A DNA stretch of 18,284 nucleotides. It comes from a virus. Taxonomy: Duplodnaviria; Heunggongvirae; Uroviricota; Caudoviricetes. Positions 7,023 through 7,882 of the stretch are shown here, one piece after another. The number at the start of each line of letters is the position of its first letter. The stretch's first letter is position 1. The stretch is from positions 1 to 18,284 of IMG/VR virus record IMGVR_UViG_2534681673_000003; one strand, 5' to 3'. The position numbers and the translations under genes were made by a program. The notes beneath the pieces were generated by a model that was not told where the DNA came from, made no database searches, and was given only the letters and a program-made list of their open reading frames with translations.

Positions 7023-7534
7023 CGTAAAATATTCTCCTCGTTTATCAGTCCGTTTCGCTTCAGGTAGTCCATCGCCTTATCCGGTAATTTGCAGTCCGGC
7101 TTCGCTTTTTTCAGTTGGCTGACCAGCCGTTTAACCCACATTGCTAATTCGCTAACCTGATTGCCGGATGCTGGTGGATTGTCGGCTTTACCCAGAATGG
7201 CAGCACAGCAGGCCTCTCTGAGCACCCAGTCAACAGCATCCTTCCATGCTCCTGTTTCGACTGGCGGATTCTCACGCTTTACCTGTTCATAAAAGCGCAC
7301 AGCTTTAACCAGTCCTTCTGATGTCACCGGGACTGGCGGGCCGATGAATAAGGCCTGAATTTCATAGTTCGGCCTGTCGTTACAATCCTCTTTTGTCGGT
7401 ACATATTTCCAGTCACCTACCCACAGCTTCCCCTGAAAGTCTGTAACGTCTTTTTTCACGTAGCGATATCGCCATGCCACTGGTTTTGCCTGCCCTGCCG
7501 TTTCATGCCCTTCCTGATAATTAATCTCGCTCAT
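7019..7534 (-). CDS. Hypothetical phage protein (171 aa)
   Basis: Long ORF, start ATG overlaps the stop of the upstream 58-aa ORF (ATGA), same strand as the surrounding operon. No family recognised. Confidence 0.6.
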   Translation of the reverse strand: MSEINYQEGHETAGQAKPVAWRYRYVKKDVTDFQGKLWVGDWKYVPTKEDCNDRPNYEIQALFIGPPVPVTSEGLVKAVRFYEQVKRENPPVETGAWKDAVDWVLREACCAAILGKADNPPASGNQVSELAMWVKRLVSQLKKAKPDCKLPDKAMDYLKRNGLINEENILR

Positions 7535-7707
7535 TCATCGCCCCACTCATCACAATATGCTTCGACCGGAGTTTTTCCTGCTTCATAGTCATCACGCCAT
7601 GCTTCAGCATCGGCGGCACTTCCACCACGTAACTCTGCATAGTCCATTAACAGTTCATGCCATTCTTCAAAACTGACGTTGTATTTAGTTGAACCAAAAT
7701 CAGCCAT
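7531..7707 (-). CDS. Small strongly acidic protein (58 aa)
   Basis: MADFGSTKYNVSFEEWHELLMDYAELRGGSAADAEAWRDDYEAGKTPVEAYCDEWGDE, about 16 Asp/Glu against 4-5 basic residues. Start overlaps the preceding ORF by 8 nt (ATGGCTGA); stop overlaps the next start (ATGA). Not in the ORF track (under 60 aa). Confidence 0.45.
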   Translation of the reverse strand: MADFGSTKYNVSFEEWHELLMDYAELRGGSAADAEAWRDDYEAGKTPVEAYCDEWGDE

Positions 7708-7882
7708 TTTGTTCTTCCTCTTCGTCTTTTATTTCGTGATATGAGTAATTGCAGTAGTTAAAGAAAATTTCTTTTGCTTCGTTATGAATTTCATCAGGCG
7801 TCGCATCATCATTCACTTCGAATTCATCCTCGAAATCTCCACCGGCGATTCCCGTTTCAATAATTATTTTGAACTTTCGCAT
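7700..7882 (-). CDS. Small strongly acidic protein (60 aa)
   Basis: MRKFKIIIETGIAGGDFEDEFEVNDDATPDEIHNEAKEIFFNYCNYSYHEIKDEEEEQNG, about 20 acidic residues. First gene of a chain of overlapping ORFs. Confidence 0.5.
   Translation of the reverse strand: MRKFKIIIETGIAGGDFEDEFEVNDDATPDEIHNEAKEIFFNYCNYSYHEIKDEEEEQNG

Follow-up and report, generated by a model that had tools for sequence, protein, structure and literature searches.

What do two very small, strongly acidic proteins contribute to a Shiga toxin prophage that encodes them one directly after the other in its early region? The question is raised by orf60 (7700-7882, minus strand) and orf58 (7531-7707, minus strand) in an 18,284-nucleotide (nt) stretch of DNA from a virus of the class Caudoviricetes, IMG/VR record IMGVR_UViG_2534681673_000003, which we call the window. 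A chromosomal segment of E. coli JNE151685 is 100% identical to the window, which is the early and regulatory part of a Stx2a-converting lambdoid prophage. The 60-amino acid product of orf60 (WP_001224668.1) is named DUF7167 family protein in RefSeq and the 58-amino acid product of orf58 (WP_000753060.1) is named hypothetical. An earlier note on this DNA, made from the letters alone, had suggested that both may be DNA mimics with an anti-defence function or host-takeover factors. We found that orf60 and orf58 are members of two catalogued, widespread families of unknown function. With regard to their role we tentatively favor, at somewhat less than even confidence, two autonomous polyanionic binders, each of which might block a basic nucleic-acid-binding surface of some target.

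Gene structure, families and folds of orf60 and orf58

The earlier note had described the 60- and 58-amino acid open reading frames (ORFs) at this place and on this strand as strongly acidic and chained by overlapping start and stop codons, and this description is accurate. Orf60 contains 18 Asp/Glu against 5 Lys/Arg and 2 His residues, with an isoelectric point (pI) of 4.13 and a net charge of -13; orf58 contains 16 Asp/Glu against 4 Lys/Arg and 1 His (pI 4.05, net charge -12). The two rank first and second for net negative charge per residue among the 28 annotated proteins of the STEC1587 homologue (L001); of the window, only the central part is shared by this homologue. Direct reading of the sequence places the orf58 start inside the end of orf60 in an 8-nt overlap, ATGGCTGA (7700-7707, minus strand; ...AAT GGC TGA / ATG GCT GA), and the orf58 stop on the start of the downstream 171-amino acid gene in a 4-nt overlap, ATGA (7531-7534, minus strand; ...GAA TGA / ATG A). 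A Shine-Dalgarno-like GAGGA, the candidate ribosome-binding site of orf58, lies within the codons of the poly-Glu tail of orf60. Upstream of orf60 there is a non-coding gap of 147 nt (7883-8029, minus strand) in which neither a promoter nor a terminator consensus was predicted, and therefore both genes are probably read from the upstream early transcript. No structured RNA was found in this gap (fold z-score -1.5, not significant). A 7-bp GC-rich hairpin at 7889-7906 (ACCGCCC-GGCA-GGGCGGT, minus strand) ends 6 nt ahead of the orf60 ATG and overlaps the sole purine-rich stretch that could act as ribosome-binding site of orf60.

The setting was correctly recognized as nin-like by the earlier note. 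Both genes lie between those for replication protein P (9396-9858, minus strand) and the Q-type antiterminator (3879-4700, minus strand) in the RefSeq annotation of the stretch. This is the slot between replication genes and Q that the nin region with NinB-NinH, Ren and Rap occupies in lambda, where small dispensable early genes are likewise chained by start/stop overlaps. However, orf60 and orf58 are not Nin homologues: neither protein matched NinB, NinE, NinF, NinG or NinH models in Pfam, PHROGs or NCBIfam, whereas the nearby RusA and DUF968 genes are recognized by RefSeq annotation. Homology to Nin proteins of defined function, which the earlier note had named as an argument against its own proposal, was not found, and neither was a match to any other family of defined function.

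Both genes are real and under purifying selection, and their folds are confidently predicted. RefSeq annotation calls both of them. Compared with the copies in the Stx2a phage ArgO145 and in IncI2 plasmids, the ratio of nonsynonymous to synonymous substitution rates (dN/dS, Nei-Gojobori) is 0.11-0.16, with 0.14 for orf60 and 0.11-0.16 for orf58. Homologues of both proteins reach 30-40% identity with conserved core residues kept, and a 501-nt block with the two genes is present in 2,341 of 5,426 complete E. coli genomes (~43%). The structure prediction that the earlier note had recommended was run with AlphaFold2 on family alignments and gave a predicted local distance difference test score (pLDDT) of 88.7 for orf58 and 86.7 for orf60. 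Decayed copies do occur, as expected of dispensable prophage genes. In phage PhiR42_1 (ECOR13; L013 3950-4560) both genes contain in-frame stops and are pseudogenes, and the record annotates two short spurious ORFs instead. The E. coli DUF7167 clusters P0118, P0122, P0126 and P0133 have residues 1-35 in common, then diverge completely and look like frameshifted alleles; P0126 is found on 107 contigs. That orf60 and orf58 are themselves spurious or decaying ORFs without function is barely credible. They are very short, and these frameshifted or stop-containing copies would fit such a view, but the low dN/dS ratios, the confident predicted folds and the conserved-core homologues across unrelated phage families and plasmids speak against it, so that conservation effectively refutes it.

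Orf60 is a full-length member of DUF7167/phrog_1997, a family without assigned function, and is indistinguishable from the other members. It matches Pfam DUF7167 (PF23768) with an E-value of 1e-13 and 51.6 bits, compared to a gathering cut-off of 24.4, residues 2-53 covering profile positions 1-60 of 60, and phrog_1997 with an E-value of 1.4e-29. It has the size of the family, its M-R-x-F-x-V-x-I-E-T start, its D-D-A-T-x-E-E-I helix and its acidic tail. In the AlphaFold2 model a beta-hairpin (2-8 and 17-23) is followed by a helix (29-43), the conserved C-N-Y-x-Y segment and the poly-Glu tail. Orf58 matches phrog_519 with a best E-value of 4.5e-23, as do all 26 aligned relatives, and spans only positions 76-137 of the 143-position profile; it has no match in Pfam or NCBIfam. 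Its AlphaFold2 model is a three-helix bundle (13-27, 34-42 and 47-55) with the conserved aromatic core F13, W16, W37, Y41 and W55. An exhaustive HMMER scan of 1.84 billion representatives with orf58 returned only ~65 clusters at 50% identity, in which almost every full-length match is to a protein of 50-65 amino acids that stands alone. Natural fusions to another domain were considered and rejected, since inspection of the longer relatives by eye suggests mis-called starts or read-through of a neighboring ORF (e.g. P0139). Four long proteins that match the orf58 profile in several short stretches look, in our reading, like compositional hits. A known-family identity beyond DUF7167/phrog_1997 for orf60 and phrog_519 for orf58 was sought in Pfam, NCBIfam, PHROGs and PADLOC, which gave nothing else. 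A search of the literature for DUF7167, the RefSeq accessions and peptide strings found no paper.

The earlier note had handled the two ORFs as a pair. Their profiles and folds, however, are unrelated, with an hhalign probability of 0.1% that rejects paralogy, and they mostly occur apart. What both families have in common is charge. The 49 DUF7167 members have a net charge of -8 to -18 (median -13.3) and a pI that never exceeds 4.34; for the 26 orf58 relatives the net charge is -4 to -14 (median -10.5) and the pI never exceeds 5.3. At least 60% Asp/Glu is found in ~18 columns of the DUF7167 alignment and in 13 of the orf58-family alignment; in helix 1 of orf58 we noted by eye E14, E18, D22 and E25 at positions i, i+4, i+8 and i+11. 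Acidic residues at conserved columns are E14, E15, D33, D39, E42, E49 and D53 in orf58 and E22, D25, D30, E31, E35, E38 and E50 in orf60. Because the acidity is family-wide and position-specific, the charge is under selection and not a quirk of the E. coli copies.

Independent occurrence in phages and plasmids

The orf60-orf58 pair is found together only in lambdoid E. coli phages. In ArgO145 it forms a trio with an Ead/Ea22-like gene in the leftward early region, where a 211-amino acid protein with that annotation occupies the position after orf58. This recalls the early-left 'ea' genes of lambdoid phages, which are mostly of unknown function, so that the likeness says no more than that the pair belongs to the mobile early accessory genes.

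Outside this group each family occurs without the other. Relatives of orf58 without DUF7167 are encoded by Ackermannviridae such as Kuttervirus, by the KP34-like podovirus phiKDA1 and in a Mu-like early region. On plasmids, orf58 relatives were found in 561 records, 516 of which are conjugative, IncI2, IncT and IncU among them. IncI2 plasmids including one that bears mcr-1 carry an 88%-identical copy (L004 1496-1880; L005 7793-8177) within an operon of the order CaiF/GrlA-regulator, DUF1187 (RcbA-like), orf58, SPFH and NfeD. This copy has the same kind of 8-nt overlap, formed with the DUF1187 gene in place of DUF7167. The similarity points to a recent exchange of the 58-amino acid gene between prophages and plasmids. 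In IncT and IncU/MOBH plasmids, copies of orf58 lie within long arrays of small unknown genes, the IncT array being located downstream of mobI. A 38%-identical relative on a JGI metagenome contig (L015 3200-3540) appears as a self-contained cassette without DUF7167, with a sigma-70 promoter close to consensus (TTGACA ... TATAAT) and a GC-rich hairpin as terminator, both recognized by eye; it is flanked by a membrane-like 157-amino acid gene and two SocA_Panacea antitoxin-domain genes. DUF7167 without orf58, in turn, is encoded by phAPEC8-like and Enterococcus EF24C-like myoviruses, by Klebsiella phages and by Pseudomonas/Stutzerimonas plasmids. Thus, each family moves independently among phages and plasmids.

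The neighbors bear on the question of whether the proteins act in cis, as antitoxin-, chaperone- or immunity-like neutralizers of an adjacent basic protein, which could be the 171-amino acid product, the upstream DNA-binding protein or Hok. Such a role would fit the translational coupling to the 171-amino acid gene, whose product has a pI of 8.3, the label 'antitoxin' of an orf58 relative in one GenBank record (Salmonella phage D5lw), and the location of an orf58 relative beside SocA_Panacea antitoxin-domain genes in metagenomic contigs. However, no neighbor is conserved: upstream there is DUF7167, DUF1187 or another gene, and downstream an Ea22-like gene, SPFH or others. Moreover, neither PADLOC nor NCBIfam gave a match of either protein to a defence or toxin-antitoxin family. 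In the Panacea contig the promoter-like and terminator-like sequences, judged by eye, bracket the orf58 relative, and on this ground we rejected its pairing with the Panacea-domain neighbor as a toxin-antitoxin system. The type II antitoxin label in D5lw was likewise rejected, as there is no conserved adjacent toxin gene and the neighbors differ in every lineage. We consider neutralization of a cis-encoded partner very unlikely. Since the neighbors are not conserved, each protein seems to act alone and not on a cis-encoded partner.

A second possibility is that orf60 and orf58 are host-takeover or housekeeping modulators which bind an abundant host nucleic-acid-binding protein (H-NS/StpA, HU, RNA polymerase, single-stranded DNA-binding protein or a replication factor) and thereby promote transcription or replication of the phage or the fitness of the prophage, in principle like T7 Gp2, T7 gp5.5 and T4 Arn/MotB. 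In this prophage the genes directly follow the replication genes; in phiKDA1 the orf58 relative lies between DNA polymerase and the 5'-3' exonuclease, in the Mu-like early region between HU-like genes and GemA/Mor, and in VLCpiS11a a family member stands beside an exonuclease gene. That ~43% of complete E. coli genomes carry the block in resident prophages would also fit a general function. On the other hand, the neighbors are inconsistent between lineages, DUF7167 being located beside a DUF3850/ASCH protein in an Enterococcus phage and beside a DUF2800 PD-(D/E)XK protein in a Klebsiella phage. As these are unrelated families, a linkage of DUF7167 to exonucleases was rejected. In addition, searches gave no resemblance to takeover factors of solved structure such as Gp2, AsiA or Arn, and the fact that both PhiR42_1 copies are pseudogenes shows that they are dispensable for the lysogen. 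Taken together, we regard a takeover or housekeeping role as doubtful.

Candidate modes of action

The polyanionic binders that we tentatively favor would be unrelated single-domain accessory proteins whose genes share a transcript of the delayed-early rightward operon and are coupled in translation. In the predicted structures, each protein is a small, well-packed hydrophobic or aromatic core that would display a conserved polyanionic surface. We hypothesize that each binds its target stoichiometrically and covers a basic surface, so that DNA or RNA is outcompeted electrostatically and the target inhibited. The two would act independently, neither forming a mutual complex nor affecting the product of a fixed neighboring gene. 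Their target might be RecBCD, RNA polymerase, a nucleoid protein or, on the side of host defence, a nuclease or sensor. The family-wide, position-specific acidity and the occurrence of both families as independent cassettes in early or accessory regions and on plasmids support a role in accessory functions or host interaction. With 58-60 residues and no match to a catalytic or DNA-binding family in Pfam, NCBIfam or PADLOC, both proteins are more likely binders than enzymes.

Several points weigh against this proposal, in which the binding to another protein, the kind of target and its inhibition are all inferred. Many small phage proteins are acidic for reasons that are not understood. Comparisons of sequence and fold gave no resemblance to Ocr, ArdA or any other inhibitor or DNA mimic with a solved structure. 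A known anti-defence gene was not seen next to either family in the ~15 contexts examined. In Kuttervirus D5lw the orf58 relative belongs to a group of small genes right behind the major capsid gene, not obviously an early position, and on IncI2 plasmids orf58 lies ~17 kb from the mobC/relaxase/oriT side, beyond repA and therefore outside the immediate leading region, so that a leading-region placement on these plasmids is not supported.

The comparison with established DNA-mimic inhibitors is instructive at this point. T7 Ocr, ArdA, T7 gp5.9, T4 Arn, phi29 p56 and Ugi are alike in small size, a pI near 4, dense Asp/Glu and carriage by phages or plasmids. Orf60 and orf58 share the strong net negative charge and the low pI, which are conserved in both families, and could work the way these inhibitors do. 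T7 gp5.9 and phi29 p56 show that small DNA mimics of similar size exist. One or both proteins might thus be anti-defence proteins of the Ocr/ArdA/gp5.9 functional type that block restriction-modification, BREX, RecBCD or a similar system at phage entry or induction. The very low pI, the position-specific acidity throughout both families and the early-operon location in lambdoid phages are consistent with this, and so is the carriage on conjugative plasmids (516 of the 561 plasmid hits for orf58), with the IncT array downstream of mobI and another array headed by a weak KorA-like hit as examples. DNA mimics are also reported to be broad-spectrum.

The structural comparison, however, does not support such a function. 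A profile search against the sequences of all PDB chains gave nothing better than an E-value of 0.03, and single-sequence searches found no solved relative either; this sequence set presumably includes deposited DNA mimics such as Ocr and ArdA. A BFVD fold search with orf58 returned only uncharacterized phage homologues. Neither family is present in the supplements of the accessory-gene screen and of the plasmid leading-region survey, and the missing co-localization with known anti-defence genes and the position of the IncI2 gene speak against this function as well. DNA mimics make up only 11 of the 268 anti-defence proteins in the EVADES catalogue, and therefore acidity alone is weak evidence with a low predictive value. 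What stands from the earlier proposal is that orf60 and orf58 are real, chained, strongly acidic early genes between P and Q with conserved acidity; specific evidence for DNA mimicry or anti-defence activity did not emerge. Anti-defence DNA mimicry is possible but unsupported, and we judge it unlikely.

A more far-reaching version appears rather improbable to us, namely that DUF7167 and phrog_519 are two new, structurally unprecedented, broad-host families of polyanionic inhibitors (DNA mimics) which inactivate DNA-binding complexes of defence or repair, for instance type I restriction-modification, BREX, RecBCD or Gabija. If true, they would be common, so far unrecognized determinants of phage and plasmid establishment, shared by temperate Stx phages, large virulent phages of Enterobacteria and Enterococcus, and conjugative plasmids. 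Should either family turn out to inhibit a system of defence or repair, the few known folds of DNA-mimic or polyanionic anti-defence proteins would be joined by a new one. The occurrence of the gene block in Stx-converting phages, on IncI2 plasmids including the mcr-1-bearing one and in ~43% of complete E. coli genomes would then be explained as well. The value of orf60 and orf58 at present lies in being well-defined candidates for anti-defence screens which are cheap to test (58-60 amino acids, confident models and conserved acidic positions), rather than in a discovery.

Surrounding genes of the prophage

The translationally coupled gene downstream of orf58, orf171 (7019-7534, minus strand; 171 amino acids, WP_001289992.1, pI 8.3), matches phrog_660 over its full length, and its C-terminal 50-70 residues also match phrog_924, phrog_250 and phrog_8171, all of unknown function. 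The matches suggest a shared C-terminal module joined to variable N-termini. Outside lambdoid phages orf171 is not a conserved partner of orf60 or orf58. A 95-nt stretch at 7513-7607, which runs from the last part of orf58 into the first part of orf171, is found with 96% identity inside a gene for a 'DUF551 domain-containing protein' in phage phiSTEC1575-Stx2k. This match gives the boundary of orf58 and orf171 the look of a mosaic recombination joint.

The rightward operon on the minus strand begins with Cro (11372-11599, RefSeq annotation of the stretch), followed by YdaT, an O-like DnaT-domain protein, P, DUF1627, a small DNA-binding protein and DUF4406. After the 147-nt gap, orf60, orf58 and the 171-amino acid gene come sok/hok, a hypothetical gene, DUF968 and RusA, and then the Q-type antiterminator, a DNA methyltransferase, three tRNAs and stx2AB. 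The plus strand of the window encodes the repressor, DicB, a RecE-like exonuclease, xis and int. The DUF4406 gene just upstream of the gap (8030-8335, minus strand; Pfam E-value 3e-37) encodes a product with weak similarity to nucleoside 2-deoxyribosyltransferase, a nucleotide-modifying fold within this accessory stretch. The 171-amino acid gene is directly followed downstream by a complete hok/sok type I toxin-antitoxin locus (6573-6897; Hok/Gef Pfam E-value 4e-23; Rfam sok 113 bits), with a terminator-like site nearby at 6504-6487. Between hok and DUF968, a 96-amino acid ORF (6134-6424) matches the GIY-YIG nuclease domain below threshold (E-value 0.0024; 18.6 bits, compared to a cut-off of 22.6). 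At the left end of the window are IraM (1-324), the small RNA STnc100 (335-547), stx2B/stx2A (622-1862) and the three tRNA genes for Arg, Gln and Ile (1954-2205).

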